Below, one piece after another: positions 1-55,636 of a stretch of DNA of 55,636 nt. This stretch comes from a virus: IMG/VR virus record IMGVR_UViG_3300029705_000156, one strand, 5' to 3'. The notes beneath the pieces are model-generated. The model worked only from the letters and a program-made list of their open reading frames with translations. It searched no databases and was not told the DNA's origin. The stretch's first letter is position 1. Every line of letters starts with the position of its first letter. The position numbers and the translations under genes were made by a program.

Positions 1-127
1 TTGCGTAGGCTAATTTCTATTTTTCTGTGTTTTCTTTGTGAATATATGCTATCGGATGAAAAATACAGTTTTCTATCATTTTTGCATCTTCAATAGCCTC
101 TTTTTCCGTATCCCACTCTTTTCTGTA
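1..127. repeat. Terminal overlap copy 1 (identical to 55510-55636)
   Basis: Base-by-base identity read from the sequence. The 127-nt length is typical of a k-mer overlap on a circular contig. Confidence 0.9.
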
Positions 128-3091: not shown

Positions 3092-3392
3092 CACAGTTTG
3101 TTGGTAATATTGCACAAAGGATTTTAAGGGCAACGGCTGAAAAGCAACGGAAATTGGGAAAAGTTCGTATAATGCTAGTTTTACGAACTCTAAAATAGCA
3201 ACACATCAGATTACCCACCCGGGGGTCTGTACGGAATACGAAAACGGCTATACTTAATACCCAAAATTTCTAAAATCACAAAAAGGCTATTATATAATAC
3301 AGCAATGTATATACTAATACCTTAAATAATTATTTATATACAATACGCTTTATATAGTATTTATATACGCTTAATACAGATTGGAGAAGTAT

Positions 3393-3743
3393 ATGGCAAA
3401 AGAATGGATAGAAATACTAGGAACTACATACAAGGTTGTTTACGAGAATGAAGAAGACAATCCGAAGTTGAAAGAATGTAACGGTCTATGCGAACAGTAT
3501 TCAAAGAAAATCGTTATAAGTGATTTGAAAGAAGCAAAAGAAGATGTTATGTGCGTTGAAAAGCCAGAGAAGTTTCAGAAAAAAATCTTGCGACACGAAA
3601 TCATACACGCATTTTTAGGAGAAAGTGGTTTGAGAAGTCAAAGTGATTGGGCTGAATGCGAAGAGATGATAGATTGGTTTGCTATTCAACACGAAAAGTT
3701 GCACCAAGCGTTTAAAGAAGCAGGAGCGTTAGAAAATGAGTAA
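3393..3743 (+). CDS. Small zincin metallopeptidase, ImmA/IrrE (M78)-like
   Basis: HExxH motif (LRHEIIHAF) after a beta-rich N-terminus. Paralogous in architecture to 55191-55517. Confidence 0.55.
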   Translation: MAKEWIEILGTTYKVVYENEEDNPKLKECNGLCEQYSKKIVISDLKEAKEDVMCVEKPEKFQKKILRHEIIHAFLGESGLRSQSDWAECEEMIDWFAIQHEKLHQAFKEAGALENE

Positions 3744-4315: not shown

Positions 4316-4387
4316 AGCCCCTTCGTCAAGCGGTAAGACGCAAGATTTTGATTCTTGTATACATTGGTTCGAATCCAATAGGGGCTG
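4316..4387 (+). tRNA. tRNA-Gln (anticodon TTG)
   Basis: Hand-folded cloverleaf. 7-bp acceptor agcccct/aggggct, D arm with GG, perfect 5-bp anticodon stem caaga/tcttg with loop TT-TTG-AT, and T arm attgg-TTCGAAT-ccaat. Confidence 0.85.
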
Positions 4388-4857: not shown

Positions 4858-4932
4858 GGGGGTGTAGTTTAAATCCGGCGAGAACGCTAGATTGAAGGGC
4901 TAGTAATGCAAGTTCAAATCTTGCCGCCCCTC
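4858..4932 (+). tRNA. tRNA, tentatively Phe (GAA), atypical
   Basis: Acceptor gggggtg/cgcccct (two G-U pairs), D stem gttt/gaac with GG in the loop, T arm gcaag-TTCAAAT-cttgc. The anticodon loop TT-GAA-GG has G37 and an A31-G39 mismatch. Confidence 0.55.
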
Positions 4933-7592: not shown

Positions 7593-7676
7593 ATAATAAG
7601 GCATACGCAAGTAGGTGTATGTATCAGTGAAGTAGCACTTTTATTTTTGTATTACAGAAATGAGGTGCTATTTTTT

Positions 7677-9446
7677 ATGGCTTCAATCGAGTTGCAAAAT
7701 GCGATAAATGGGTATGAGAACTATATAGAGCGACACGGAATTACGGAAGAAGTGGTAGAAGCGTATGTAGGTGCTTCAAAAGTTGCCTTGGTTACGGAAA
7801 AAGACGCAGAATTTGGCTTAAAAATATCAAAAAAAGCAAAAAATTTATTAAGTGATTATGTTTTAAAGGCAACAAACGGATATACGGTAGATGATTTGGA
7901 AATATTAGCGTTTGAAAATGACACGACATACAAACCATTGCTGTATTATTATGACATTTTAGAAGCGGAATCCGCTTATTTAGTAGATAGTTTTTTTAGT
8001 TACATCGAAATTGATGAAAAAGACCCTTACAAGCGGTTTTATTTCCCAAGAAAACAAGTTTTAAAGCCAGTAATGCAAGCCTATCAAGAAATTTATGATG
8101 GAGAATTGGACTTTTTATCAGTTTCTCAACCAAAAAGAACAGGAAAAACCACTGGTGGATTGCGATTAGCGCAAATGATGGGCGGAAGAGAGCCGGACGG
8201 AAGTATTTTTGCAGTCGGTAAGGGCGAAGGACTTGTTAAGCGTTTCTATGGTGGGTTACTACAATCATTTGAGACAAAAGTAATCTATGAAAGGTTTTTA
8301 AAAGTATTCCCGGAAGCGAAAAAAATAGGAGAAAAAGACTATAAGAGTGCAGAAAACCTATCTATTGATTTAAAAAGCAAAAATACATTTCCCACTTTTA
8401 CTTGCAGACCGATTGACGGTGCAATTGTAGGTTGTACGGAAGCAAATGTGCTTGTTTACATTGATGACTGCGTAAAAAACCACGAAGAAGCAAGAAATAG
8501 AGAAAGATTAGAGTTTCTTTGCGAAAAGGTTACGGACGATGTCCTTGGTAGAAGATTAGAGGGTACACCCATTATTATCCAAGGAACAAAATACAGTTTA
8601 TATGACCCAATTACCGCTTTACAACAAAAGGCTGATGAACTGGAATGGCGTTGGAAAGAAGTGGCAGTTCCTGCGTTGGATCCGATTACGGATGAAAGCA
8701 ATTGGGAGATTTACAGAAAAGACAACAAAGGCTTAAGAAAAATATTTACAACAGACTATTACCGCAAAGAAAGAAAACTTGTTTCTGAAGAAACTTGGGC
8801 GGCTGAATTTCAGCAAGAACCTTACGAAGCAAAAGGGCGAATGTTTTCCGAAAAAGAACTTAACTACTTTGAGGAGTTGCCTATTGACAGAGAGCCGGAC
8901 GCAATTATGGCTGCGTGCGATAGTGCTGACAAGGGAGAAGATAGTTGTTCAATGCCTATTGGATATGTTTACGGAAATGAAGTTTACATTGTCGATGTGG
9001 TATTTGACAATGCCGGAACACAGTTTACAAAGCCTGAATGCGCAAATATGTTGATTAAACACAATGTAAAGACCGTTACATTTGAAAGCAATAGTGCCGG
9101 AGAATATTTCGGAAGAGATGTTATGCAACTTGTATCGGAACAAGGCGGAAGATGTAGTGCTAGATACAAATATAACTGTTCAAACAAAATCACAAGAATG
9201 GAAAATGCAAGAGATAATATTATCCGTGATTATTATTTCAAAGACTTCCGCAAAATGGATAGAAGTAGTCAGTATTACAAGTTTATGAAAGAACTTACCA
9301 CAATGACACGAAGCGGAAAAGTGAAACATGATGACGCGCCCGATTCACTTGCTTTGTTTGAAAATGAAATGAGAAGCGGAACAGTAGCGAAAGTCGAAGC
9401 AATCGCAAATCCGTTCAGAGGGGGATATGGTGGATATGGTTTCTAA
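7677..9446 (+). CDS. terL: Terminase large subunit
   Basis: Walker A-like QPKRTGKT, Walker B-like VLVYIDD, and a C-terminal nuclease-like region. Position is upstream of portal. RBS GAGGTG. Confidence 0.8.
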   Translation: MASIELQNAINGYENYIERHGITEEVVEAYVGASKVALVTEKDAEFGLKISKKAKNLLSDYVLKATNGYTVDDLEILAFENDTTYKPLLYYYDILEAESAYLVDSFFSYIEIDEKDPYKRFYFPRKQVLKPVMQAYQEIYDGELDFLSVSQPKRTGKTTGGLRLAQMMGGREPDGSIFAVGKGEGLVKRFYGGLLQSFETKVIYERFLKVFPEAKKIGEKDYKSAENLSIDLKSKNTFPTFTCRPIDGAIVGCTEANVLVYIDDCVKNHEEARNRERLEFLCEKVTDDVLGRRLEGTPIIIQGTKYSLYDPITALQQKADELEWRWKEVAVPALDPITDESNWEIYRKDNKGLRKIFTTDYYRKERKLVSEETWAAEFQQEPYEAKGRMFSEKELNYFEELPIDREPDAIMAACDSADKGEDSCSMPIGYVYGNEVYIVDVVFDNAGTQFTKPECANMLIKHNVKTVTFESNSAGEYFGRDVMQLVSEQGGRCSARYKYNCSNKITRMENARDNIIRDYYFKDFRKMDRSSQYYKFMKELTTMTRSGKVKHDDAPDSLALFENEMRSGTVAKVEAIANPFRGGYGGYGF

Positions 9447-10246: not shown

Positions 10247-10513
10247 ATGGCAGTAGTATTTGACGGACAAACTTATGAAAACGAGAGTGAAATTCCTGAT
10301 ATGGGAAGCATTCAGTGTGTAGAAGTTCGTGGAAATCAGAGAGATTATCAAGGATTTGTGCAGGACAGTCAAAAACTGCCGAAGTATGATGACCTTGCAA
10401 CGGGAAGTAGTGCGATATTGATTGACCCGAATGGAGTAGAAAGTACGATTATCGGAAAATATGACGCACCTACAAAACAGTGGTTGAATATGAAAGGCGG
10501 TGTAATCGTATGA
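10247..10513 (+). CDS. Hypothetical protein
   Basis: 88-aa track ORF with RBS GAGGTG. Confidence 0.5.
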   Translation: MAVVFDGQTYENESEIPDMGSIQCVEVRGNQRDYQGFVQDSQKLPKYDDLATGSSAILIDPNGVESTIIGKYDAPTKQWLNMKGGVIV

Positions 10514-12936
10514 GTTTAAAAGGTGAAGAGGCTTTAATACTTGGGATGGACTACACCGAAGAATCATTGTTGGGTGCAGGAGCCTTAAAAGGTCAAGACG
10601 GACAAGATGGTGTATCGCCTATTATTTCCGTAAACACAAGTACAGCAGATACATACAAACTTGACATTACGGACAAAAACGGAACGATTACCACACCAAA
10701 TCTTGTTGGAAAACAAGGGGAGCGTGGAGAAGTTGGCGAAACCGGAGCAGACGGAGAAACACCGACAATTACCGAGAACGCAGATAATACCGAAGAAGTT
10801 TATAAATTAGACTTTACTACAAAGAATGGTACATTTACCACAAAGAATATTAAGGGAAAGCAAGGACTCGAAGGAGTTAGCCCGACAGTTACTACTAACC
10901 CCGATAACACAACGGAAGATTACCGACTTAACATTACAACCAAGGGCGGTAGTTTTACAACTCCTAATCTTAAAGGTCCGCAGGGTGAGCGCGGTCCTAT
11001 TGGTGAAAGTGCCGTAAGTGCAATTAACCCAAGAGGAGATTATGATGTAAACGCAGAACCTAGTTACACAAAGAGCGATTACATTACATATACAGACGGA
11101 AATACTTATGTTTGTAAACTTGATAACCCTACAAACGAGCCACCGATTGACGGAACAGTAACAGATACTTATTGGCAAGTAATAGCATTTAGGGGTGCAC
11201 AAGGTATCGCAGGTAGAGATGGCGAGAAAGGTGCAGACGGAGTAACCTTTACACCGAGTATTGATGCAAACGGAGTATTGTCGTTTACAAACAATGGTGG
11301 TTTGGAAAATCCCGAACCTATTGATATTAAGGGCGATAACGGTGTGACATTTACACCTAGCATAGATGCAGAAGGATATTTGAGTTTTACCAACAATGGC
11401 AATCTTGAAAATCCCGAACCGATTAAGGTATTAGGACAAGATGGTGCAGACGGTAAAGACGGAATAGATGGTACAACATACATACCTAGCATTGGCACAG
11501 TAACAACAGTTGAAAGTAATGCCGATGCAAGTGCAGGAGTAACAGTTGACGAAGAAACCAAAGAAGCGGTATTCCATTTTGAAATTCCAAAAGGAGAAGA
11601 TGGATTTAGCCCTATCGTTGAAACTGTTGAAAGTGAAAACGGACACACAGTAAACATTGCAGATGTTGAGGGTGTGAAATCGTTTGAAGTGCTTAACGGC
11701 AAAGACGGAGTACAGATTGATGATGAAACTGCAAGCACCGACACAGTTTGGAGCAGTCAGAAAACGAGTGACGAGTTAGCGAAGAAATTAACAAAAAATT
11801 ACGCATCACTTACGGATGCAAATATTGTTATGGATAGTGGAAATGGTTTCCATATATATCGTGTTGGGTATGGTTGTTTAAATACACCAGTAAATCGTAT
11901 TGGTATAATTATTAGTAACAACTATTATGATAATGCACAATATATACGAATTACACAAACTTATATGACCAATGATGATGACACAGCAAATGGTTTAACC
12001 TATATGCGTTACGGAATGTCTAATAATAATGGAAGTACTTATACATGGAGTGATTGGAGACAGATTGGTTGTTTAAACGACACCAAATCTTCAGCAACAA
12101 GCACGTACTCATCATCTAAGATTGATGAGAAATATGGTGCATACACATTCGGTACAGCAGGTGCTACACAGTGGCTTAAATTGACATTAGGTAATTCTTC
12201 AAAATTCCAACCTATTGTAATTTCAGACCAATATGGAGGAAAAGTTGAGATTACTGGTATGGCTGATGATGGAACATACAAATCTGTTAAATTGGTTAGA
12301 TATAGTTATGGTGATTGGACTACATATAGTGCGACAGATTATACTGTGCATGATGGAGTTGACCCTAATTATAAGATTCAACGCTTTTATTATTATCCTA
12401 CTGATGGTTATTATTATCTTGAAATTAGACAGTGGACAACTCTTAAAGTCGAGGGAAATAGTACTGCGGAACTGGTTACAAGTTTACCTGCTGAAAAAAG
12501 TGAAATGACTTTAATTCCTGAGAGTAATTGGGGAAGCATCAACGATTCTTCAACTTCCACAACTTCAACTTGGAGCAGTAATAAGATTGCTCAACAGGAC
12601 GGAGTTAAACAAGTATTCTATGCTTCTTCAACATCATATCCATCAATATTTTGGGTTTTATCAGATGCAACAACTGGCGTATTCTGGTTTAAGCATACAT
12701 TATCCGATAGTTCTGGTGTAAAATCAGTTGAAGGATATGCTGATTTAACACATAATGTAGCAAGATTGATAAGTGGAAGCGGAAGTGATATAAATGTATC
12801 TATTGGAACAGATACAATATCTGGTAAAAAGGGTGTAAGATTAATTGTGGCTTGGGGAGATAGCTCAACTACAAGTTGTAAGATTACAGAGGCAAGACCT
12901 GTTACAGCTATTCCTACAGAAATTGTAACAAGATAG
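10510..12936 (+). CDS. Collagen-like repeat fibre protein
   Basis: Several short G-X-Y runs (GKQGERGEVGETGADGET, GPQGERGPIGES, GAQGIAGRDGEKGADG, GQDGADGKDGIDG) interleaved with tandem beta-type repeats. ATGA overlap start. Confidence 0.7.
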   Translation: MSLKGEEALILGMDYTEESLLGAGALKGQDGQDGVSPIISVNTSTADTYKLDITDKNGTITTPNLVGKQGERGEVGETGADGETPTITENADNTEEVYKLDFTTKNGTFTTKNIKGKQGLEGVSPTVTTNPDNTTEDYRLNITTKGGSFTTPNLKGPQGERGPIGESAVSAINPRGDYDVNAEPSYTKSDYITYTDGNTYVCKLDNPTNEPPIDGTVTDTYWQVIAFRGAQGIAGRDGEKGADGVTFTPSIDANGVLSFTNNGGLENPEPIDIKGDNGVTFTPSIDAEGYLSFTNNGNLENPEPIKVLGQDGADGKDGIDGTTYIPSIGTVTTVESNADASAGVTVDEETKEAVFHFEIPKGEDGFSPIVETVESENGHTVNIADVEGVKSFEVLNGKDGVQIDDETASTDTVWSSQKTSDELAKKLTKNYASLTDANIVMDSGNGFHIYRVGYGCLNTPVNRIGIIISNNYYDNAQYIRITQTYMTNDDDTANGLTYMRYGMSNNNGSTYTWSDWRQIGCLNDTKSSATSTYSSSKIDEKYGAYTFGTAGATQWLKLTLGNSSKFQPIVISDQYGGKVEITGMADDGTYKSVKLVRYSYGDWTTYSATDYTVHDGVDPNYKIQRFYYYPTDGYYYLEIRQWTTLKVEGNSTAELVTSLPAEKSEMTLIPESNWGSINDSSTSTTSTWSSNKIAQQDGVKQVFYASSTSYPSIFWVLSDATTGVFWFKHTLSDSSGVKSVEGYADLTHNVARLISGSGSDINVSIGTDTISGKKGVRLIVAWGDSSTTSCKITEARPVTAIPTEIVTR

Positions 12937-13036: not shown

Positions 13037-14476
13037 ATGGCATACAGATATGTCGGTAAAAATACTAGACCGTTTTCCGCAATTACACATAACAATTACG
13101 GAAGGACTATTATTTACACTAATCAAAATCGAATAGATGAAAACAACATTGTGCAAGAACTCAACAACGCACTTGTTTATCATACCCAAAATGCCACCGA
13201 GATTGAATATCTTGATAGGTATTATCGGGGCGACCAACCGATTTTATATCGCAAGAAAGAAGTTAGACCAGAAGTGAATAACAAGGTGGTGGAAAATATT
13301 GCCTTGTTTATCGTGGAAACAAAGACTTCTGAAATGGTTGGAGAGCCTATTCAATTTGTTCTGCGAGGTACTGACGAAAACAAGTCAAGGCAGATTGCAG
13401 AATTAAACTCAATTATGGAAAGCGAAGATAAAGCATTTTACGATATTGAGTTGTGCCGTTGGAGAAGTATTTGCGGTACGGCATATCGCTTTATCGGAAC
13501 AAACGAAACAAGCAATGAGCCACTCTTAGATGAGAGTGACTTTTTTATTTCCGTAGAAGACCCTAGAAATACTTTTGTGGTTTATCACAATAACGGCAGA
13601 CCTGCTTTTAGTTGTCAGATTAGAAAAACAACCGAGGGCAACAACCTTTACTTCTGCTATACAAAGGGAGAATGGTTTGAAATCGTTGGTGGAGAAATCG
13701 CAAACAGAGGTGTGAATGGAAATTTTGCGATTCCGGTTATTGAGTACCCGAACAATGAAAGAAGATTATCTGACATTGAATTAAGCATAACCCTAACAGA
13801 CGAAATCAATAAAATGTCTTCTGATAGAGCAAATGGCATTGAACAGTTTGTTGCTAGTTGGGTTAAGTTTATTAATGTTGATGTGGACTTAGAAACATTC
13901 CGCTCCCTCAGAAGTGAAGGCGCCCTTGTGGTTAAGTCAAACAACGGCGCTGAAAATAAGGCTGATGTTGATATTATGTCGCAAGAGTTAAACCAAACAG
14001 AAAGCCAAGTTGCCGTAAATGATTTGTTTGAAAAACTGCTTATCATTCACGGACTTGCAGACCGACAAACCAACACGGGCGGTGACACAGGTTCGGCCGT
14101 AACATTGCGTAATGGTTTTTACTCAATGGAAAAGCGGTCAGAATTGGCAGAGCCGATTTTCAAAAGAGCAGAAAGAAACGCTTTGAGAATTATCTTAAAT
14201 CGTTTGAGAATAAACAAACAGTTTACACTTGTTCCGTCTGATGTGGAAATCAAAATCAGTAGAACAAAATCTGACAATATGCAGATGAAAGCACAAGTTC
14301 TTCAAATGCTTTTGCAGAGTGGTGTTAAGTATGAAAGAGCCATAAAAACAATCGGTCTTTTTGCAGACCCCGAACAAGTTGCTTTGGAAAGCCGTAAGAG
14401 AATGGAAATGCTTTATCCAGAAGAACAGAAAGAAGAAGTAATTGTTGATGACAATAAAAAAGCAGAGCCTTTATAA
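13037..14476 (+). CDS. Portal protein (SPP1 gp6-like)
   Basis: 479 aa. YYRGDQPIL motif, with size and position typical of this portal family. Confidence 0.8.
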   Translation: MAYRYVGKNTRPFSAITHNNYGRTIIYTNQNRIDENNIVQELNNALVYHTQNATEIEYLDRYYRGDQPILYRKKEVRPEVNNKVVENIALFIVETKTSEMVGEPIQFVLRGTDENKSRQIAELNSIMESEDKAFYDIELCRWRSICGTAYRFIGTNETSNEPLLDESDFFISVEDPRNTFVVYHNNGRPAFSCQIRKTTEGNNLYFCYTKGEWFEIVGGEIANRGVNGNFAIPVIEYPNNERRLSDIELSITLTDEINKMSSDRANGIEQFVASWVKFINVDVDLETFRSLRSEGALVVKSNNGAENKADVDIMSQELNQTESQVAVNDLFEKLLIIHGLADRQTNTGGDTGSAVTLRNGFYSMEKRSELAEPIFKRAERNALRIILNRLRINKQFTLVPSDVEIKISRTKSDNMQMKAQVLQMLLQSGVKYERAIKTIGLFADPEQVALESRKRMEMLYPEEQKEEVIVDDNKKAEPL

Positions 14477-16332: not shown

Positions 16333-17409
16333 ATGAATATTAGAGATGCTTATAGTTCAAAAGCGATTGCAGTTAGACACAATGAAGTGGCAAGCAACAA
16401 GCAGCCGTATCTTGGTGTTGGTTTGTTCCCTGCAAAGAAGAAAACAGGTCTTGACCTTAAATGGATTAAGACTTCAAAAGGATTGCCTGTTTCCTTAATG
16501 CCTAGCGCATTTGATACAGTTTCTACAATCCGTAGCCGTGAAGGTTTCCAGATTACTGAAACAGAGATGGCGTTCTTCAAAGAGTCTATGCTTATCAAAG
16601 AAAATGACGAGCAGGAAATTATGCGTATTCAGGATTCTTCTGACCCATTCGCACAGGAAGTATTAGACAGAATCTATGATGATGCTGAAACACTTATCGA
16701 AGGTGCAGAAGTTGTACCCGAAAGAATGAGAATGCAGTTATTATCTTCCGCAACAGGAAATCCTAGTATTTCTATTTCGGCTGATGGTGCTACATACTCT
16801 TACAACTATGACCCCGACAACACATACAGGACAAACAACTTTACAGAGTTGCTTGGTACAGATATGTGGTCTGATACCGCAAATTCTGACCCTATCCAGG
16901 ATGTTATGGATGCACAGGATGCGGTTGAAGCAAAGACAGGTGTTAGACCTTCTATCTTAATTGTTTCAAAGCAGACAATGAACTACTTAAAGCAGAACAC
17001 AAAGGTTCGTTCTTATACACTTGCACAGAATGTAACTGCTAACATCATTATGACAGATAATCGTGTTAAGGAAACATTCTCTACTGAATTAGGCGTAACA
17101 ATCATTGTTTACTCTAAACAGTACAAGGACGAAAGCGGCGTTGTTAAGAAGTTCTATCCCGATGGTATGGCTACACTTATCCCGGATGGTGCATTAGGTA
17201 ATACTTGGTATGGTATGACACCCGAAGAAAGAACGCTTATTAGCAGACCCGAAGCAGATGTTACTATCGTTGATGGCGGTGTTGCAGTTTCCGTAACTGT
17301 TACAGAAGATCCCGTACACACAAAGACAACTGTTTCCGAAATCTGCTTACCTTCTTTCGAGCGCTTAAATGAAACTTATACACTCAAAGTCGGAACAGTA
17401 TCTTACTAA
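16333..17409 (+). CDS. Major capsid protein (lambda gpE-like family)
   Basis: 358 aa. The N-terminal pattern YLGVGLFPAKKKTGLDLKWIK...SLMPSAFD is typical of the Phage_cap_E family. Confidence 0.8.
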   Translation: MNIRDAYSSKAIAVRHNEVASNKQPYLGVGLFPAKKKTGLDLKWIKTSKGLPVSLMPSAFDTVSTIRSREGFQITETEMAFFKESMLIKENDEQEIMRIQDSSDPFAQEVLDRIYDDAETLIEGAEVVPERMRMQLLSSATGNPSISISADGATYSYNYDPDNTYRTNNFTELLGTDMWSDTANSDPIQDVMDAQDAVEAKTGVRPSILIVSKQTMNYLKQNTKVRSYTLAQNVTANIIMTDNRVKETFSTELGVTIIVYSKQYKDESGVVKKFYPDGMATLIPDGALGNTWYGMTPEERTLISRPEADVTIVDGGVAVSVTVTEDPVHTKTTVSEICLPSFERLNETYTLKVGTVSY

Positions 17410-29797: not shown

Positions 29798-30685
29798 ATG
29801 ATTACAATTAACACAGGCGCAGGACACGCAGCACAAGGCAATAAATACCACGGAGCAGTAGGATTAATTGACGAAAGCAAAGAAGCAAGAGAAGTATTAA
29901 GTAGGGTAAATAGAATTTTGCTTGAAAATGGCATCATAATTAACGATTGCACCATAGATAGCGGTGTAAGTAAGCGTGATATCATTGACAAATCAGTAAA
30001 GTTGCATATTGAGGGCGCAGAATATGATGTTTCTATTCATTTTAATTCTTTTTCTTTAAAGTCGGCAAATGGTACAGAGGTTCTTATTTATTCTGATAAG
30101 GCAAGAGTATTAGCGCAGAATATTGCAGATGAAATCGGAAAACTTGGCTATGTAAAGCGTGGTGGAGGTGTAAAAATCCGCAAAGACTTACGATATTTAA
30201 AAACTTCGCCCAATCCCGCCGTATTGATTGAATGTTGCTTTGTAACAAACGCAAACGATGTTAAGAGGTACAATGCTGATACTATGGCTAAAGCTATCGC
30301 AAACGGCATTTTAAAGACAGTTGCAAAGCAGATGGTAGAAATTAAGCCTACTGTTACAAACAACACTACAAAGCCGAATAACAGCGTTACAAAAAGCAAA
30401 TTTATTGACGGCGGACTTGATTATGCTTTGGTGTTCAATCCGACATATTACTTGAACAAGCACGCGGATCTAAAAAATTCCGTATTTGCAGAAAGCGACA
30501 AGAAATTGTTTGAGCATTTTATTAAGTATGGTATGATTGAGGGCAGACAAGCAAGTTCAAACTTTAATGTAAAAGCATATCGTGATAATTATGCTGATTT
30601 GCGTAAAGCATTCGGGGATAATTTGCCTAAGTATTACCGCCATTATATCGAATTTGGCTACACAGAAAAGCGAAAAGCATTATAA
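29798..30685 (+). CDS. Endolysin, N-acetylmuramoyl-L-alanine amidase (Amidase_3-like) with C-terminal repeat domain
   Basis: N-terminal INTGAGHAAQG...E...SIHFNS pattern. C-terminal duplicated Y..N..DL...F......HY...G..EGR-like motif. Confidence 0.7.
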   Translation: MITINTGAGHAAQGNKYHGAVGLIDESKEAREVLSRVNRILLENGIIINDCTIDSGVSKRDIIDKSVKLHIEGAEYDVSIHFNSFSLKSANGTEVLIYSDKARVLAQNIADEIGKLGYVKRGGGVKIRKDLRYLKTSPNPAVLIECCFVTNANDVKRYNADTMAKAIANGILKTVAKQMVEIKPTVTNNTTKPNNSVTKSKFIDGGLDYALVFNPTYYLNKHADLKNSVFAESDKKLFEHFIKYGMIEGRQASSNFNVKAYRDNYADLRKAFGDNLPKYYRHYIEFGYTEKRKAL

Positions 30686-32035: not shown

Positions 32036-32383
32036 TCACTTTCCTAATCTGTCAATCATTTTCATTATATCTTTTCTGTCATCTTCTGACAGTTTAGATA
32101 ACTTAATTGCGTATTCTTTGATTTCTTTGCTTAAAAAGATAACATCTGCATCTAAATCAGCACTTTCTATTATCTCTTTTGGTTCTTCCCATCCCATTAA
32201 ACTTCCGGGTGTTACCCCAAAGCATTTTGCTAAAGATAAAATTCTATCGTAAGGAATTGTAGATATTTCGCCACTTTCATATCTCTTAATAGTCTGCTTT
32301 GTTGTTCCTGTTCTCTTACCTACTTCTTCTAAAGTAAGATTCTGTTCTTCTCTTAATCTTCTTATATTTTCGTGAATACCCAT
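32036..32383 (-). CDS. CI-like repressor (XRE-family HTH)
   Basis: IRRLREEQNLTLEEVGKRTGTTKQTIKRYESG. RBS AAGGAG. Divergent from a Cro-like gene. Confidence 0.8.
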   Translation of the reverse strand: MGIHENIRRLREEQNLTLEEVGKRTGTTKQTIKRYESGEISTIPYDRILSLAKCFGVTPGSLMGWEEPKEIIESADLDADVIFLSKEIKEYAIKLSKLSEDDRKDIMKMIDRLGK

Positions 32384-32422
32384 ATTTTCAACTCCTTTCC
32401 TATATTTTAGTGCCGTGAAACC

Positions 32423-32450
32423 ATTATAACACAAATAACGCAAAATGCAA
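32423..32450 (-). promoter_or_regulatory. Repressor-maintenance-type promoter
   Basis: The minus strand reads TTGCAT-N16-TATAAT with TGT immediately upstream of the -10 (near extended -10). Confidence 0.5.
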
Positions 32451-34015: not shown

Positions 34016-34354
34016 GTGAGAAGGCGAATTAGACAAGCGTTGTTTGATTTAGGAATACCTTTTAATTTAAGAGGTTTTGCATATTTAGAAGAAGCGTTGT
34101 TGCGCATTATTGAAGTTGATGAAAAGTCGCTTACCCAGGTTTGTATAGATATCGAAGAAAAAATCTTTGTGTCTTATCAATGCGTTCATAGTGCGATTGG
34201 CACAGCTGTCAAGAAAATGAACAGAAATAGCGATGCATGGAAGCGATATGTCAATGTAGACACAAAAAGCACTGCGGAAATTGTATATGCAATAGCTTTT
34301 AACATTATGAAGGAGATTGAAGATGAACAAGATATATCTGCAAGGGATAGTTAG
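34016..34354 (+). CDS. Spo0A C-terminal (DNA-binding) domain-like protein, no receiver domain
   Basis: IRQALFDLGIPFNLRGFAYLEEALLRII aligns with the Spo0A segment [21 protein letters not shown]. GTG start after AAGGAG. Confidence 0.6.
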   Translation: MRRRIRQALFDLGIPFNLRGFAYLEEALLRIIEVDEKSLTQVCIDIEEKIFVSYQCVHSAIGTAVKKMNRNSDAWKRYVNVDTKSTAEIVYAIAFNIMKEIEDEQDISARDS

Positions 34355-50358: not shown

Positions 50359-50583
50359 ATGTGGAGATTGGGTAAGTATTTATCATCTTTGACAAAGCCG
50401 GAACTTGAGGAATTAAAAGACCAACTTAATTTAACAGACGATGAAATGATGGTATTTGAGCAGTTATCTAGGGGCAGAAGTAATATTCTTGTCGCTGATA
50501 ATTGCCAAATATCAATCAGGACAGTTGATAACAAAATCAAATCAATAAACATAAAATTAGGGCGGTTAAAAAATAATGGATAG
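50359..50583 (+). CDS. Small sigma-region-4/LuxR-type HTH protein
   Basis: LTDDEMMVFEQLSRGRSNILVADNCQISIRTVDNKIKSI. Confidence 0.5.
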   Translation: MWRLGKYLSSLTKPELEELKDQLNLTDDEMMVFEQLSRGRSNILVADNCQISIRTVDNKIKSINIKLGRLKNNG

Positions 50584-51799
50584 TTTATCTAACAAAGAAT
50601 TATTGAATTTTGCGATTGAAAATGGTATTATCGACATTAACACCATTCAAAAGCAAATTGAGATGAACGAACGAAAGAAATATCTTGATATGCACATTTA
50701 TTCAGTGTTTAAGGGTGCAGACGGAAATTATCATACATCTGTGCCTGATGACACAAAGAAAAACAACAGGAGGGCTATTAAGCGAAAAACAAAAGAATCT
50801 ATTGAGGATGCAATTATTGAATATTACAAAAGTGTTGAAAATGAGCCTAGATTAAAAGATTTGTTCAGACTGTGGATTGATAAGAAGTTGAAGTATTGCG
50901 AAATTGAAAAGCAGACCGCTGACCGATACGAAACTGATTTTATAAGATTTTTCTCAAATAACAATCTGTATAACAGGAAGGTAAGGTATATTACAGAAAA
51001 CGATCTTGAGGATTTTATAAAAACAACCATAGCCGAAAAACAGTTGACAGCTAAAGGTTGGGGTAATTTGCGGACTTTGATAAACGGTATGTTTAAGTTT
51101 GCAAAGAAACAAGGTTACACGCAAATAAGCATAACTCACTTTATGGGCGATTTGGATTTGTCAAAAAAGGCTTTTAAGAGAAGAGTTTTTGCGAGTGAAG
51201 AATCTGTATTTACTGACCGAGAGATAAATCTTATTATGGGATTCATTGATAATGCAGAGCCGTCTCTTATAAATCTTGGTGTTGTATTGGCTTTTCAAGC
51301 AGGATTAAGAGTTGGTGAATTATCAGCATTAAAGTATAGCGACCTTAACGGAAATGTTCTTACGGTAAACAAAACAGAAATTAGATACAAGGGCGAAGAC
51401 AACAGTTATGTTTTTGAAGTAAGAGATTACACAAAGGGAGATATAGGACACAGAAAAGTCATTCTCACAGATTTGGGAGTACAGTCAATTAAAAAAGCAA
51501 AGATGTTAAACCCTTGGGGCGAATATCTGTTTATGGAAAACGGAAACAGAATTAAAGCCAAGGCATTTACAGTAAAAATTGAAAAAATTTGCAAATATGT
51601 TGGTATAGAACCACGCTCGCTCCATAAAGTCAGAAAAACTTACGGCACCAAACTTCTTAATGCCGGGTTAAGCGAAAAAGTAATTGAAAGCCAAATGGGT
51701 CATACCGACATAAATACCACAAAAGGATTCTATTGGTTTAACAATTTGGAAGAAGAAGAGGTTAAAAAAATGGTTTCCAATGCTTTAAATTATCGTTAA
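50576..51799 (+). CDS. int: Tyrosine integrase
   Basis: 407 aa with an N-terminal SAM-like domain. Catalytic GLRVGE, HKVRKTYGT, MGHTDINTTKGFY. The attP lies immediately downstream. Confidence 0.85.
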   Translation: MDSLSNKELLNFAIENGIIDINTIQKQIEMNERKKYLDMHIYSVFKGADGNYHTSVPDDTKKNNRRAIKRKTKESIEDAIIEYYKSVENEPRLKDLFRLWIDKKLKYCEIEKQTADRYETDFIRFFSNNNLYNRKVRYITENDLEDFIKTTIAEKQLTAKGWGNLRTLINGMFKFAKKQGYTQISITHFMGDLDLSKKAFKRRVFASEESVFTDREINLIMGFIDNAEPSLINLGVVLAFQAGLRVGELSALKYSDLNGNVLTVNKTEIRYKGEDNSYVFEVRDYTKGDIGHRKVILTDLGVQSIKKAKMLNPWGEYLFMENGNRIKAKAFTVKIEKICKYVGIEPRSLHKVRKTYGTKLLNAGLSEKVIESQMGHTDINTTKGFYWFNNLEEEEVKKMVSNALNYR

Positions 51800-51810
51800 A
51801 TGATAAAAAG

Positions 51811-51983
51811 GTTAGCAAAAAAGTTAGCAAGGTTAGCAAAGCCAAAATCCGCAAACCCTTATAAATCAAGGCTTTCGGGGTTTTGCCACGGGGTTCGAAT
51901 CCCCCTCTCGCTACTCTTTTTGTGCCGAAAATCAAGGGTTTTTGGCATTTTTTATTTTCAAAAGTTAGCAACGTGGTTAGCAA
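51811..51983. promoter_or_regulatory. attP: tRNA 3'-end-like core flanked by GTTAGCAA arm-type repeats
   Basis: GTTAGCAA at 51811, 51823, 51832, 51964 and 51976. The core GGGGTTCGAATCCCCCTCTCGCTA at 51890-51913 looks like a T arm plus acceptor 3' strand. Confidence 0.7.
51924..51957 (+). terminator. Intrinsic terminator just after the tRNA-like core
   Basis: Stem gcc(g)aaaa/ttttggc, followed by ATTTTTTATTTT. Confidence 0.5.
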
Positions 51984-52049: not shown

Positions 52050-52101
52050 TGCGTAAATTCTGCGTGAAATATATGGTAAATTATGTGTGAACTCTGCGTG
52101 A
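52050..52101. promoter_or_regulatory. TGCGTRA operator-like repeats upstream of the cargo operon
   Basis: TGCGTAAA at 52050, TGCGTGAAA at 52061, TGCGTGA at 52095. A related inverted repeat TGCGTAAAACGCA lies at 2148-2160. Confidence 0.4.
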
Positions 52102-52144
52102 TAGGGTTCTTTTTTTATGCCAAAATTAAGGCAAGAAAGGAGAA

Positions 52145-52300
52145 ATGCTGATGTTCACAGATGAAATCTTGGAAAGATTATTTGCAATAAAGGAAATGCA
52201 GAAGCTGACATTAGCAGACCAATCAATGCTGATAGATGCTTTTGAAGAGATTATGGAAGAAGAGGAGAAAAAACATTATGCAACCTTACCCGAACCCTAA
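52145..52300 (+). CDS. Small acidic protein (51 aa)
   Basis: ATG after AAAGGAG. Below the track cutoff. Confidence 0.4.
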   Translation: MLMFTDEILERLFAIKEMQKLTLADQSMLIDAFEEIMEEEEKKHYATLPEP

Positions 52301-52730
52301 TTATTTCACACAGTATCAGCAACCGCAGTTTAATCCGTACTTACAGAGAATGGAAAATCTGCAACAGTTTCAGCAGACATTACAGCCTACTAATCAAATT
52401 CCGGCAATCGGTAAAGTAGTAGAAAGTATGGATATTGTAAAGGTAACGGACATTCCTATGGACGGAAATGTGTACTATTTCCCGAAAGCAGACGGAGAAG
52501 AGATTTACACAAAGCAGTTTATGCCGAACGGACAAACTCGTATTTTGACTTTTAAGCCCATTACAGATGATAACCCTAACAATTTACCATTGGACGAAGA
52601 AAAATCGAAATTTGATACCTTTAACGCGTTTTTAGAGGGTATTCAAGCAGACATTAAGACCTTATCTGACAAGGTGGATAAGATTTCAAAGCCGAATAGG
52701 GCTAAAAAAGAGGTAGATGCAGATGAATAA
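52278..52730 (+). CDS. Protein with Q/P/N/Y-rich N-terminus and a beta-rich core
   Basis: MQPYPNPNYFTQYQQPQFNPYLQRMENLQQFQQTLQPTNQ... RBS GAGGAG. No family recognised. Confidence 0.5.
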   Translation: MQPYPNPNYFTQYQQPQFNPYLQRMENLQQFQQTLQPTNQIPAIGKVVESMDIVKVTDIPMDGNVYYFPKADGEEIYTKQFMPNGQTRILTFKPITDDNPNNLPLDEEKSKFDTFNAFLEGIQADIKTLSDKVDKISKPNRAKKEVDADE

Positions 52731-52941
52731 TATTATAACAAATCAAATAATAAACCAACTCATGCAAAGTCCCAGATTAAAAAATAATGAAATTGCATTA
52801 AATGCAGTTCAAATGTATAGAAGCGGAAACTCTAAAGAGGTTTTTGCAATTAGAGACAATTTGTTTAGTGGAAACAATGCTTTAAAAAATAATTTATCAC
52901 AATTAGAAGATGAAGCTAAAAAAATATTAGGCATGAATTAG
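52717..52941 (+). CDS. Hypothetical protein
   Basis: 74-aa track ORF. Confidence 0.45.
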   Translation: MQMNNIITNQIINQLMQSPRLKNNEIALNAVQMYRSGNSKEVFAIRDNLFSGNNALKNNLSQLEDEAKKILGMN

Positions 52942-53018
52942 TACATATCAGAGTTTGTGCGCACATTAAAACTGGTTTTCTCTGTTTGTAAATAAAAATT
53001 TTAAAGGAGAAAAAAGAT

Positions 53019-53750
53019 ATGTTCAATTCAAACACAGGTTTTTCAATGCCGGTTATGCCTGCTTATGGCAACAACGGCGGTTTTGGTGGCGGTTTTGGCG
53101 AAGATTTAATCGCACTTATCGTTATCTTAGCAGTATTAAATGGCGGTTTTGGTGGTTTTGGCTTTGGTGGTAACGGTGGTTATTCCGAAGTTCAAAGAGG
53201 ATTTGATCACAACGCAGTTATTAACAAGTTAGATGGTCTTACTTATGGACTTTCCGACAGCACTTATGCACTTACAGGAGCATTAAACAGCGGATTTAAT
53301 AGTGTTCAGCAGACATTGTGTCAGGGCTTTAATGGTCTTAGCAGAGAAGTAGCTGACTGTTGCTGTGCAACACAGGGCGCAATTAAAGATGTTCGCTATG
53401 ACCTTGCAACACAGGCTTGCGATACAAGAAATCTGATTCAATCTACCACAAGAGATATTATTGATGGTCAGAATGCTTCTACGAGAGCCATTCTCGATTT
53501 TCTTACCACTGATAAAATCGCTTCATTACAGGCTGAAAACCAGTCTCTTAAACTTGCGGCTTCACAGTCAAATCAGAACGCAGTTTTGATGGCAGCTATG
53601 GATGCTAATAAGGCAGAGATTTTAAGACGCACTGGAAACGAATGTCCTATCCCGGCATACGTTGTTCCAAATCCTAACTGTTGCTACAATCCTTTTGGGG
53701 TTGGCTATGGTAGCGGATATGGAAATTCTTGCGGTTGCGGATGTGCTTAA
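53019..53750 (+). CDS. Gly-rich membrane protein with Cys-rich C-terminus
   Basis: GGFGGGFGEDLIALIVILAVLNGGFGGFGFGGNGG (YjcZ-like segment), then CCCATQG and NPNCCYNPFGVGYGSGYGNSCGCGCA. RBS AAAGGAG. A terminator follows. Confidence 0.55.
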   Translation: MFNSNTGFSMPVMPAYGNNGGFGGGFGEDLIALIVILAVLNGGFGGFGFGGNGGYSEVQRGFDHNAVINKLDGLTYGLSDSTYALTGALNSGFNSVQQTLCQGFNGLSREVADCCCATQGAIKDVRYDLATQACDTRNLIQSTTRDIIDGQNASTRAILDFLTTDKIASLQAENQSLKLAASQSNQNAVLMAAMDANKAEILRRTGNECPIPAYVVPNPNCCYNPFGVGYGSGYGNSCGCGCA

Positions 53751-53856
53751 TTACAAATGAAAACTGAATAAACTCGCCCTTATGGGTTGATATTTCAAAG
53801 GGGTAGAAGTGGTAATTCTATCCCTTTTTGATTAAAGAAAGAGAGGTAAAAGCAAT

Positions 53857-54252
53857 ATGGCTTGTAAAAATGTATGTCGCTTATGCGATAGATTGATTAT
53901 TAGTTCCGCAGTAACCTTTACCGCCGGAACAGGACTTATTATTAACATCCCCGAAGGTAGTTACCAAGACGGATGTAAATATTGCATCGTAGTAGCACAG
54001 ACTATTCCCGATGCAACAACAATTACTGCCCCGGTATTTATTACTATCGGAGATGGAGATGTTTTATATCCGCTTAACAAATGCGATTGCACACAGGCAA
54101 CTGCTTGTAGTATTCGCACAAGAACAAAATATGCAACTAGGGTTGAAACAAGTGCTACAACAGGCGTTTTCAAACTTCTTGGAAGAGTGGCTTGCGCACC
54201 CAACAACAACTTAACAGCGATTGACGGTACGGCACCGACAACAGGGGCATAG
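53857..54252 (+). CDS. Cys-containing beta-rich protein
   Basis: MACKNVCRLCDRL... 131 aa. RBS AGAGAGG. No family recognised. Confidence 0.5.
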   Translation: MACKNVCRLCDRLIISSAVTFTAGTGLIINIPEGSYQDGCKYCIVVAQTIPDATTITAPVFITIGDGDVLYPLNKCDCTQATACSIRTRTKYATRVETSATTGVFKLLGRVACAPNNNLTAIDGTAPTTGA

Positions 54253-54269
54253 AAAGGTAGGTAGATATA

Positions 54270-55070
54270 ATGGCAGAAGAAACAAAAGTAGGAATGAAAC
54301 TTGATATGGAGTTAGAACCTATCAAGGATATGTGCAAGAAATTAGAAGAAGCAGTAAAGCACGAATTAAGTAAAGGCATTGAAAATGTTGACGCAAAAGA
54401 GCTTGGCGAAGTAGTTGATATGATTAAAGACCTTTACGAAGCAAAAGAGAAAATTGTTAAGGCTTGCTATTACAAAGGCGTGCTTGAAGCAATGGAAGAA
54501 CACGATTTTGAAGATGAGGACGAAATCGAAGAAGAAGGACGCAGAGGTTACAGAGGACAGCCGAGAAGTCAAAGCGGTAGATTTATGAGCCGTGGAGATG
54601 GCAGACGCTCAAATCGTGGTCGTAGTAGCCGTAGAGGTTATGAAGATATGATGATGTATGACGATATGGACTATGACGAAATGGAAAGAATGCGTGATAT
54701 GGACAGACCTTATGGAAGAATGGGTTACAGTGGTAGTGGTTCAAGTGGCGGTTCTTCAAGCGGAATGTCAAGCGGCGGTTCATCATCTAGCGGTATGAAT
54801 AGCGGTTCTATGGGTTCACAAGGCGGTTCAAATAGCGGTAGCCGTGGATATTCTGAAAGCAGATACGACAGAGCAAGAAGAGGTTATGAAGAAACCAAAG
54901 CAATGCACAATAGCGATTCAGCAGAAGATAAACAGTTGACTATGCGTGAAGCGGAAAAAATGGTAAATGTTATTTTTGATGAATTAGAAGAATCATTATC
55001 AGATGCCCCGAAAGAGGTTAAAGATATGATTAAAAACAAAGGAATGGCTAAATTGCAGAAGATTCAATAA
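54270..55070 (+). CDS. Intrinsically disordered RG/SG/DM-rich protein with helical termini
   Basis: Central GRRGYRGQPRSQSGRFMSRGDGRRSNRGRSSRRGYEDMMMYDDMDYDEMERMRDMDRPYGRMGYSGSGSSGGSSSGMSSGG... Confidence 0.55.
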   Translation: MAEETKVGMKLDMELEPIKDMCKKLEEAVKHELSKGIENVDAKELGEVVDMIKDLYEAKEKIVKACYYKGVLEAMEEHDFEDEDEIEEEGRRGYRGQPRSQSGRFMSRGDGRRSNRGRSSRRGYEDMMMYDDMDYDEMERMRDMDRPYGRMGYSGSGSSGGSSSGMSSGGSSSSGMNSGSMGSQGGSNSGSRGYSESRYDRARRGYEETKAMHNSDSAEDKQLTMREAEKMVNVIFDELEESLSDAPKEVKDMIKNKGMAKLQKIQ

Positions 55071-55137
55071 ACGCACGAAAAACGCACGATAAACACACGC
55101 GTGCGATTAAATTAAGGGGTGGAGAAATCTGCCCCTT

Positions 55138-55190: not shown

Positions 55191-55517
55191 ATGACATTTA
55201 CAGTAAATAACCAAGAATGGGAATTAGTGTTAGTAAATCCGAATAGTAAAGAACTTATGAGAAGTAATGGCAGTATAACAATCGGAATGACAGATAATAA
55301 CCAAAAGAAAGTGTTTATAAATAATAGGCTAAATGATTATCTTTTTGATAAATGTTTGGCTCACGAACTATGCCACGTTTACGCTTTTTCTTTTGATTAT
55401 TTTATGGATATTGAAACCGAAGAGATTGTTGCGGACTTCTTCAGTTTGTTTGGTAGAAGTATGGTTTATATGCTTGATGATTTGGTTGGCATATTGAAAA
55501 AAGCCTACATTGCGTAG
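55191..55517 (+). CDS. Small zincin metallopeptidase, ImmA/IrrE (M78)-like, paralogue of 3393-3743
   Basis: ITIGMTDNNQKKVFINNRL...CLAHELCHVYAF (HExxH). The stop lies inside a GCCTAC/GTAGGC hairpin. Confidence 0.55.
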   Translation: MTFTVNNQEWELVLVNPNSKELMRSNGSITIGMTDNNQKKVFINNRLNDYLFDKCLAHELCHVYAFSFDYFMDIETEEIVADFFSLFGRSMVYMLDDLVGILKKAYIA

Positions 55518-55636
55518 GCTAATTTCTATTTTTCTGTGTTTTCTTTGTGAATATATGCTATCGGATGAAAAATACAGTTTTCTATCATTTTTGCATCTTC
55601 AATAGCCTCTTTTTCCGTATCCCACTCTTTTCTGTA
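55510..55636. repeat. Terminal overlap copy 2 (identical to 1-127)
   Basis: Same as copy 1. Confidence 0.9.

Follow-up and report, generated by a model that had tools for sequence, protein, structure and literature searches.

A conserved phage gene cassette of low-complexity and cysteine-rich proteins beside attP in a gut phage genome

Introduction

What does a phage do with a row of small genes that lies directly behind its attachment site and encodes low-complexity, Gly-, Cys- and Tyr-rich proteins? We addressed this question for the IMG/VR virus record IMGVR_UViG_3300029705_000156, a stretch of 55,636 nucleotides that we refer to as the window, in which a co-directional gene block (52145-55070) follows the integrase gene (int) and the phage attachment site (attP). 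The original prediction, made from the sequence alone, had described the block as a six-gene cargo operon and likened its products to spore coat or exosporium proteins. Genes without a known function make up the bulk of gut phage genomes, and it is difficult to decide which single orphan genes deserve attention first. The cassette to which this block belongs stands out, comprising five to seven genes in invariant order with a regulator of its own and a conserved cis element, and offering one interchangeable slot for a head module and another for a peptidase. It has spread through hundreds of viral contigs, thousands of protein clusters and phages of two bacterial phyla, and within one abundant lineage of temperate phages of the human gut it has become fixed. 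These features suggest a specific, so far undescribed piece of phage cell biology. The outcome also corrects the spore-coat reading, which was appealing but unsupported.

The block is one copy of a conserved cassette

What lies at 52145-55070 represents a self-contained gene cassette that is conserved among phages and has p2-p6 as its core. Its accessories are p1, a peptidase (p7 in the window) and an upstream helix-turn-helix (HTH) protein of the LuxR/sigma-r4 type. The genes in the window are the following (aa, amino acids; ORF, open reading frame):

52145-52300, + strand: p1, acidic peptide of 49-51 aa, a lineage-specific accessory gene
52278-52730, + strand: p2, core gene (longest ORF start, 52236)
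52717-52941, + strand: p3, 74-aa N/Q/M-rich helical protein, core gene
53019-53750, + strand: p4, core gene (phrog_16490, 5.6e-48)
53857-54252, + strand: p5 of type A, 131-aa beta-rich protein with an N-terminal Cys cluster, core gene
54270-55070, + strand: p6, core gene with homologues in phrog_28802
55191-55517, + strand: p7, 108-aa minimal zinc metallopeptidase (HExxH and downstream EE)

All six ORFs of the original prediction were found where it had placed them, each with a purine-rich ribosome-binding site (RBS). Their co-directional, att-proximal arrangement also stood; the unit, however, is longer and continues to p7, which had been overlooked. The probable start of p1 is its second ATG at 52151 (MFTDEIL...), since RBS spacing is better there and homologues begin with MFTDEFL; p1 homologues occur in the curated loci L005, L009, L012, L015, L019 and L023.

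The cassette was present in at least 558 IMG/VR contigs, and 80 of these loci were scored with hidden Markov models (HMMs) built from the curated loci. Conserved synteny, a point raised in the original prediction, was borne out: the block recurs in other phages with p2-p3-p4-p5 in this order on one strand in 38 of 39 IMG/VR loci with full flanks, and gene order is unchanged across more than 100 loci, the core being p2-p3-p4-p5-p6. Among the homologues, p3 is Q/N/M-rich with 66-80 aa and p5 beta-rich with about 130 aa. Loci missed by the p6 model ('short' loci) carry a divergent R/D/Y/G-rich protein with a GR[YF]xx[RK]-type motif after p5.

Relatives of p4 form more than 7,900 clusters at 90% identity and occur in 31 GenBank phage records, including the Clostridium perfringens phages CPD1 and XP41-N3, Butyrivibrio virus Ceridwen, several 'Dulem' and 'bajarodcaudo' viruses and a Bacteroides uniformis phage. 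The hosts for which a name is given belong to the Clostridia (Lachnospiraceae, Oscillospiraceae, Ruminococcus, Acutalibacteraceae and others), with two metagenome-assembled genomes (MAGs) of Bacilli in addition. A second phylum is represented by Bacteroides phage C3_41T2LP (B. uniformis) and by p4-like genes in two Parabacteroides records. The cassette is essentially absent from plasmids. Three cultured phage-host pairs carry it and are thus at hand: C. perfringens CPD1, Butyrivibrio Ceridwen and B. uniformis C3_41T2LP. A prophage of Vescimonas fastidiosa (AP023416) is a further cultured carrier.

A set of 28 relatives with enough sequence was picked by integrase, independently of the cassette. 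All 28 carry the complete cassette, their integrases being 45-52% and their cassette proteins 30-46% identical. The cassette adjoins int/att in these 28, in the window, in L009 and L023, and in the 'short' loci; most temperate carriers have it beside int/att, or with lysis genes on one side and a reverse-strand integrase on the other. Other placements occur as well. Dulem virus 35 carries the cassette inside its head-gene region, not next to att. The plaque-isolated C3_41T2LP, which has its own DNA polymerase, carries it among recombination and replication genes, with the annotated recombinase about 14 kb away. Ceridwen, another carrier, has been seen to grow only lytically and was judged virulent by its authors (PMC7372960).

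Two side observations concern the surroundings of individual copies. In L009 (4243-5554, a Lachnospiraceae MAG), host genes border directly on the cassette; by inspection they look like ribulose-phosphate 3-epimerase and thiamine pyrophosphokinase genes, so that this copy sits at the end of a prophage whose integration site is not a tRNA gene. Endonuclease-like ORFs lie in or beside the cassette in L003 (5125-5748, CPD1), L004 (7109-7903, Ceridwen) and L022 (3814-4434, the Bacteroides phage). By sequence the first two look HNH-type, and the third is annotated 'DNA endonuclease I-HmuI'; the pattern suggests that the cassette is a conserved target for homing elements.

Cassette proteins have unusual compositions and no known family

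The core proteins share a strong compositional bias. p2 has a Q/P/N/Y-rich N-terminus, a small conserved globular domain (...IYxK...G...) and a C-terminal helix. p4 combines a Gly/Phe-rich N-terminus with an invariant CCC (residues 114-116) and a CP.P...CGC Cys/Gly/Tyr tail. p6 has helical ends and an R/G/S/D/M/Y low-complexity centre with a GR[YF]xx[RK]-type motif, and its entropy falls to a minimum of 1.51 bits. Residues in low-entropy windows make up 27% of p2, 42% of p4 and 47% of p6, whereas only 4 of 52 other phage proteins exceed 10%. Cys accounts for 4.5% of p4 and 6.9% of p5, compared with a background median of 1.5%, and Gly for 14% of p4. The odd compositions noted earlier thus hold against the phage background, as does the CGCGCA end of p4. 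The 'YjcZ-like' label given to p4 did not survive; the likeness is compositional, and no NCBIfam or Pfam model matched.

By hydropathy, p4 has a hydrophobic segment of transmembrane (TM) grade at residues 30-44, the only one among the cassette products. Its AlphaFold2 (AF2) model, built from 62 sequences, reached a predicted local distance difference test (pLDDT) score of 47.2 and is unusable as a fold; the low-confidence secondary structure would comprise a TM helix (28-40), two further helices (64-103 and 110-204) and a disordered tail. Inspection by eye revealed no signal-peptide-like N-terminus in any cassette product.

Family searches left p1-p6 without a real match in Pfam, NCBIfam, PADLOC or PDB sequences, and the core genes fall only in PHROGs of unknown function (21718, 22984, 16490, 20016 and 28802). 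For p2, the match to phrog_21718 scored 8e-8 and that of its L006 homologue 8.5e-38; p3, which invariably lies between p2 and p4, has its homologue in phrog_22984. There was no significant match to structural or lysis PHROGs, the only labelled matches being low-complexity noise of p6 (E 0.018-0.06). Similarly, PADLOC-DB v2 returned no match for p1-p5 and p7, and noise for p6 (E 0.016-0.08). Profiles of p2, the p6 N-terminal domain, p3 and a papain-like Cys-protein (see below) found nothing real among PDB sequences; a p3 match, 7bqq 'Gogy', is presumably a designed helical protein. DUF6744 was dropped as a candidate for p2, as the weak match involved only 1 of 14 members. Rfam gave no match in the cassette region. 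Overall, the earlier statement that no product resembles a structural, replication or lysis protein was confirmed with Pfam, PHROGs and NCBIfam, and together with PADLOC these searches extend it to defence families.

Some loci (L005, 1763-1963; L019, 7723-7929; L023, 6690-6920) have an extra ORF of 66-76 aa between p4 and p5, with a hydrophobic N-terminus, a coiled-coil C-terminus and no Pfam family; the window lacks it and has a terminator in the gap instead. For the small TM/coiled-coil ORFs in the neighbourhood of the cassette, an XhlA-/BhlA-type holin identity was considered and then dropped, as Pfam did not bear it out.

The p5 slot holds one of two interchangeable proteins

Type A, the p5 of the window, is the most conserved gene of the cassette. 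It has at least 4,800 database clusters, the best 120 listed being 85-96% identical, and an exhaustive search gave 365 representatives at 50% clustering. Every one of 77 IMG/VR loci has either type A or type B in this slot, never both and never neither, and type B occupies it in most relatives. Dulem virus 39 and 27 of the 28 lineage relatives show the p1-p7 layout of the window with a type B p5, and because one layout thus carries either protein, types A and B share one functional slot. The two show no sequence similarity: hhalign comparison, run twice, gave a probability below 1%.

Type B resembles the C-terminal, C1q/TNF-like domain of BclA (E 7.9e-8), with 32.7 bits against BclA_C, below the gathering score of 38, and with 2 of 8 members matching. 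The type A protein of the window gave no BclA_C match. A type A profile of 71 sequences, reaching down to 25% identity, matched nothing in Pfam or among PDB sequences, and an AF2 model from 60 sequences (68-95% identical) was unusable at pLDDT 46.5. A resemblance of type A to subunits of endospore appendages (ENAs; DUF3992) was not confirmed by Pfam or PDB sequence searches.

Between the window and L105, its best integrase-matched relative (Int about 52% identical), type A is 87% identical. Among integrase-matched relatives, identity reaches at most 53% for p2 and at most 48% for p4. Type A is either under extreme constraint or recently exchanged between phages.

The peptidase slot is likewise interchangeable

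In p7, residues H58, E59, H62, E77 and E78 are invariant in 14 aligned sequences. The protein stays below curated cut-offs (Peptidase_M78, 18.1 versus 22 bits; SprT-like, 15.7 versus 25.6 bits), and its PDB matches are weak (E 0.018-2): minigluzincins (MJ1213/selecase, projannalysin), Wss1 and IrrE. Its gene comes after p6 in 21 of the 39 loci with full coverage and in all 28 integrase-selected relatives, and it accompanies p1 in 12 of 12 loci. Lineages without p7 have an upstream papain-like protein of 125 aa with conserved Cys, His and Asp (phrog_3754). The two peptidases are mutually exclusive, with the papain-like protein in 7 loci, p7 in 21 and both in none (Fisher p = 0.002, relatedness ignored).

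Further p7-like genes lie outside the cassette. The window encodes a second mini HExxH protein (3381-3743, + strand) that aligns with the p7 family, and L028, L034 and L103 each have another copy, detected by the p7 HMM, a few kb downstream of the cassette.

A linked regulator, an attachment site and a promoter-like box precede the cassette

The region around the block contains the following elements:

50359-50583, + strand: small LuxR/GerE (sigma region-4-like) HTH protein (Pfam GerE, E 6e-7)
50576-51799, + strand: tyrosine integrase (Pfam Phage_integrase, 1.3e-17; phrog_1, 1.9e-37)
51807-51983, + strand: attP, with arm repeats flanking a tRNA-identical core
51922-51948: terminator hairpin within attP (-13.1 kcal/mol, z -3.9)
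52050-52101, + strand: four TGYGTRA heptamers in two 25-nt direct repeats, with 11-bp spacing inside each
52089-52126, + strand: hairpin (52089-52109; -7.8 kcal/mol, z -2.1), then a T-run, then the box TTTTTATGCCAAAAT (52112-52126)
53797-53827, + strand: intrinsic-terminator-like hairpin with T-run in the p4/p5 gap (-15.4 kcal/mol, z -3.6)
55114-55137, + strand: terminator-like hairpin after p6 (-15.2 kcal/mol, z -3.6)
55502-55520: bidirectional terminator after p7

The HTH protein passes the Pfam GerE gathering score (29.4 versus 23.5 bits), and its gene overlaps the integrase start. A comparable small HTH gene lies upstream of the cassette in most loci (L001, L002, L006, L011, L018, L019, L020 and many IMG/VR loci), that of L006 matching region 4 of a sigma-factor PHROG, and this linked gene is located at the 3' end of lytic operons. 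In the lineage of the window, integrase and attP are placed between HTH and cassette.

The integrase/attP module targets a tRNA gene. GTTAGCAA arm repeats lie on either side of the core, three at 51807-51836 and two at 51960-51983, and the core (51892-51913) exactly matches the 3' terminal sequence of tRNA-Met(CAT) genes in other contigs (L149, L158, L163, L173 and L174). Integrase, arms and core together make the neighbouring site a genuine attP, as had been proposed.

The TGCGTRA repeats reported ahead of the block are real: the 52 nt at 52050-52101 hold three exact copies and one TGTGTGA variant. Comparable heptamers with 11-bp spacing lie upstream in L009 (TGTGTAG, three times) and L019. 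They are candidate regulator-binding sites, possibly for the linked HTH protein. The conserved box TTTTTNTGNNAAAAT (TGnnAAAAT type) has one exact occurrence in the window, at 52112-52126. It is found 13-30 nt ahead of the RBS of the first cassette gene in eight curated loci (L001, L005, L006, L009, L012, L013, L015 and L019). Of 72 IMG/VR loci, 23 have it, compared with 18 copies counted in 2.3 Mb of other sequence. In form the box resembles an extended -10 element without a -35 element and may serve as the cassette promoter, with the preceding hairpin and T-run as a putative insulating terminator. RBSs of the block's own and internal terminators, also claimed for it, were recovered, the hairpins after p4 and p6 both having z -3.6. 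ACGCACG repeats after p6 were considered as a mirror of the upstream heptamers, in the manner of transposon-like ends, and rejected: the hairpin is not significant (z -1.3), and neither L009 nor L019, the two relatives that were inspected, shows the repeats behind p6.

A tentative role in the phage's own cycle

We tentatively favour a reading in which the cassette produces a membrane-tethered assembly that is built in the cytoplasm and serves the phage's own cycle. The assembly would form in the infected or induced cell, cytoplasmic because the cassette products have no signal-peptide-like N-termini. p4 would be the anchor, a helical rod of roughly 140 residues with a Cys/Gly/Tyr tail; p5 would be a globular head or polymerising subunit; p2, p3 and p6 would act as low-complexity adaptor or matrix proteins; and the peptidase may mature one of the components. 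The linked HTH protein, produced from the preceding lytic operon, would turn on the cassette promoter. The resulting structure could contribute to phage development by organising replication or assembly, by exclusion or by egress at the membrane, rather than by remodelling spores.

A role in the phage cycle is favoured because the cassette is fixed in all 28 relatives despite integrase identities of 45-52%, because it sits in the head-gene region of Dulem virus 35, because the Bacteroides phage carries it among recombination genes with the recombinase about 14 kb off, and because the linked HTH gene lies at the 3' end of lytic operons. Dispensable cargo is not usually fixed across diverged relatives. 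Its presence in Ceridwen, judged virulent, points the same way.

Several points weigh against this reading. The AlphaFold models of p4 and p5 are unusable, so that the two proteins are assigned their putative parts as rod, anchor and head by secondary structure, composition and analogy. The flanks of the p4 TM segment are nearly uncharged, and its topology is tentative. Most temperate carriers have the cassette next to int/att, the classic position of lysogenic-conversion genes. The putative promoter and its link to the HTH protein are read from sequence, and an extended -10 promoter could equally be constitutive, hence active in lysogens. Finally, the apparent peptidase exclusivity and the locus counts ignore relatedness among contigs.

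A bolder version, which we consider unlikely, would make the cassette a new kind of phage-built structure with a membrane-anchored, Cys-rich p4 stalk, a self-assembling or C1q-like p5 head and a possibly phase-separating p2/p3/p6 matrix, matured by the peptidase. If true, this would be a viral counterpart of cross-linked assemblies of the exosporium/ENA type, made in the infected cell and common to phages of Bacillota and Bacteroidota. It might organise or shield replication or assembly at the membrane, or encase progeny.

Lysogenic conversion and the spore-coat question

The original prediction suggested instead that the block is a lysogenic-conversion module; as a moron expressed by the resident prophage, it would decorate or cross-link the host envelope, the spore coat or the exosporium. 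This explanation is doubtful as a whole. Its positional part stood, since the cassette lies beside int/attP in most temperate carriers and abuts host genes in L009; with its own promoter-like box and terminators it also looks transcriptionally autonomous. Hosts are mostly Clostridia, type B p5 is BclA_C-like, the HTH protein belongs to the GerE family and the phage has a Spo0A_C gene. Exosporium proteins are assembled in the mother-cell cytoplasm, and the cassette products share with them the lack of signal-peptide-like N-termini. However, the cassette is fixed in 28 of 28 relatives, unlike sporadic morons, and its linked HTH gene has its place in lytic operons. Further carriers are the virulent-judged Butyrivibrio phage and Bacteroides and Parabacteroides elements.

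The more specific spore-coat or exosporium claim was not supported. No coat, exosporium, ENA or YjcZ model matched the window proteins, deep profiles included: p1-p6 gave no match to CotY/Z, ExsY, DUF3992, DUF4183, BclA_C or YjcZ in Pfam/NCBIfam at E <= 1, and the p5 profiles, that of 71 sequences among them, found nothing among PDB sequences, a set in which ENA and BclA entries should be represented. DUF3992, DUF4183 or the A-ENA fold is what defines an ENA fibre (PMC12357932, PMC13111695), and none of these was found in the cassette. Collagen-like GXY repeats are absent too, the Gly runs of p4 being GGF/GGFG. In the same line, the cassette is not restricted to spore-forming hosts, as Ceridwen, C3_41T2LP and the p4-like genes in Parabacteroides show. 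A faint echo of the exosporium idea is the BclA-C/C1q-like type B protein in the p5 slot of most relatives.

Virion accessory, conflict system or chance ORFs

A virion accessory appears improbable. Here, p4 would form a trimeric coiled-coil fibre or whisker carrying an exchangeable p5 head, p2, p3 and p6 would be chaperones or connectors, and the peptidase would mature the fibre. The rod-like p4 helices fit this picture, as does a swappable head slot with one version that is C1q/TNF-like, as in fibre knobs. The depositor of the Bacteroides phage annotated its homologue as 'outer capsid protein/viral fiber', head genes flank the cassette in Dulem virus 35, and the cassette is fixed in the lineage of the window. 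A TM-grade hydrophobic segment in p4, on the other hand, does not suit a fibre, type A p5 is far too conserved for a receptor-binding tip, and structural PHROGs lack a significant match. Moreover, in nearly all loci the cassette is no part of the structural operon and comes after a terminator, and it moves between unrelated phage backbones.

We give a similarly low probability to a conflict system, that is, a superinfection-exclusion, defence or anti-defence module at the membrane. The att-proximal hotspot, the combination of a single-pass membrane protein with a protease, nearby HNH endonucleases and the 'PolyVal metallopeptidase' annotation of the p7 analogue in the Bacteroides phage would agree with such a role. 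Yet there was no PADLOC match and no nuclease, NTPase or other sensor/effector domain, three low-complexity proteins would be atypical, and the cassette is found in a probably virulent phage and fixed in a lineage. Low-complexity sequence can yield spurious ORFs, but chance or decayed, functionless genes are refuted by thousands of homologues, invariant residues, a gene order conserved across phyla, and RBSs with terminators.

The genome around the cassette

The first and last 127 bp of the window (1-127 and 55510-55636) are identical and form an exact terminal direct repeat; because of these identical ends, the window is a circularly closed phage genome with a true length of ~55.5 kb. An ORF at 38-331 partly repeats sequence of the window end. 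Further landmarks are:

7647-9446: large terminase
13037-14476: portal
16333-17409: major head protein
29798-30685: endolysin
32036-32443, reverse strand: repressor
about 32.8-50.3 kb: early genes
34016-34354, + strand: 112-aa protein with a Spo0A C-terminal DNA-binding domain (Pfam, 28.8 bits versus a cut-off of 25)

The last of these corroborates the claim that the phage encodes a Spo0A-C-like regulator. The protein has no receiver domain and lies in the early region, 18 kb from the cassette; it might let the phage read or mimic the master regulator of host sporulation.

A small reverse-strand block, with p7 on one side and the packaging genes on the other, contains a second, short tyrosine-recombinase-like gene of 208 aa (728-1354, - strand; phrog_216, 6e-36). 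Two phage-borne tRNA genes, tRNA-Gln(TTG) at 4316-4387 and tRNA-Phe(GAA) at 4858-4932, lie upstream of the terminase. The interval between large terminase and portal holds an 818-aa ORF (10480-12936, + strand) with a weak 'tail fiber' PHROG match (5.7e-15), an unusual position for a tail-fiber-type gene.

Comparison with known systems

The cassette appears to be an undescribed kind of phage module, no known system having been found with its architecture. A full-text literature search for the families and related terms did not find a description of it, and with core genes in function-less PHROGs only, the earlier impression of an apparently undescribed block was upheld.

Individual components nevertheless have counterparts. 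p7 is like minigluzincins, M78 (ImmA/IrrE) and SprT/Wss1 proteins in its ~110 aa and its HExxH with downstream Glu; unlike ImmA, it has no XRE repressor alongside, the repressor of the window lying at 32036-32443. Membrane-anchored coiled-coil phage proteins are exemplified by phi29 p16.7, a replication organiser, and the i-spanin Rz. By analogy only, p4 is like them in its N-terminal single TM segment, long helical or coiled-coil region and conserved Cys, but differs in having no detected Pfam or PDB sequence similarity and no lipoprotein partner, and the cassette has mostly Gram-positive hosts and is not adjacent to the endolysin in the window.

Morons and lysogenic-conversion cassettes are known from prophage ends, for example as the lysis-att genes of staphylococcal and streptococcal phages. 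The cassette shares with phage morons its int/att position, its own promoter-like element and terminators, and its mobility between unrelated backbones. In contrast to them, it comprises five to seven co-inherited genes without a known effector domain, is fixed in 28 of 28 relatives and has a probably virulent carrier.

Exosporium and ENA assemblies of Bacillota, finally, comprise the Cys-rich ExsY/CotY lattice, BclA with a C1q-like head, and the DUF3992 and DUF4183 fibres. They are set apart by family membership and collagen-like repeats, which the cassette lacks, whereas the cassette has a p4 membrane anchor and is phage-borne, also in phages of non-sporulating Butyrivibrio and Bacteroides. 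Both have Cys-rich, Gly/Tyr-rich, cross-linkable proteins without signal-peptide-like N-termini and a small beta-rich subunit with an N-terminal Cys cluster (type A p5 in the cassette), and the likeness extends to the BclA_C-like protein in the p5 slot of relatives and to the GerE-type regulator near the cassette.

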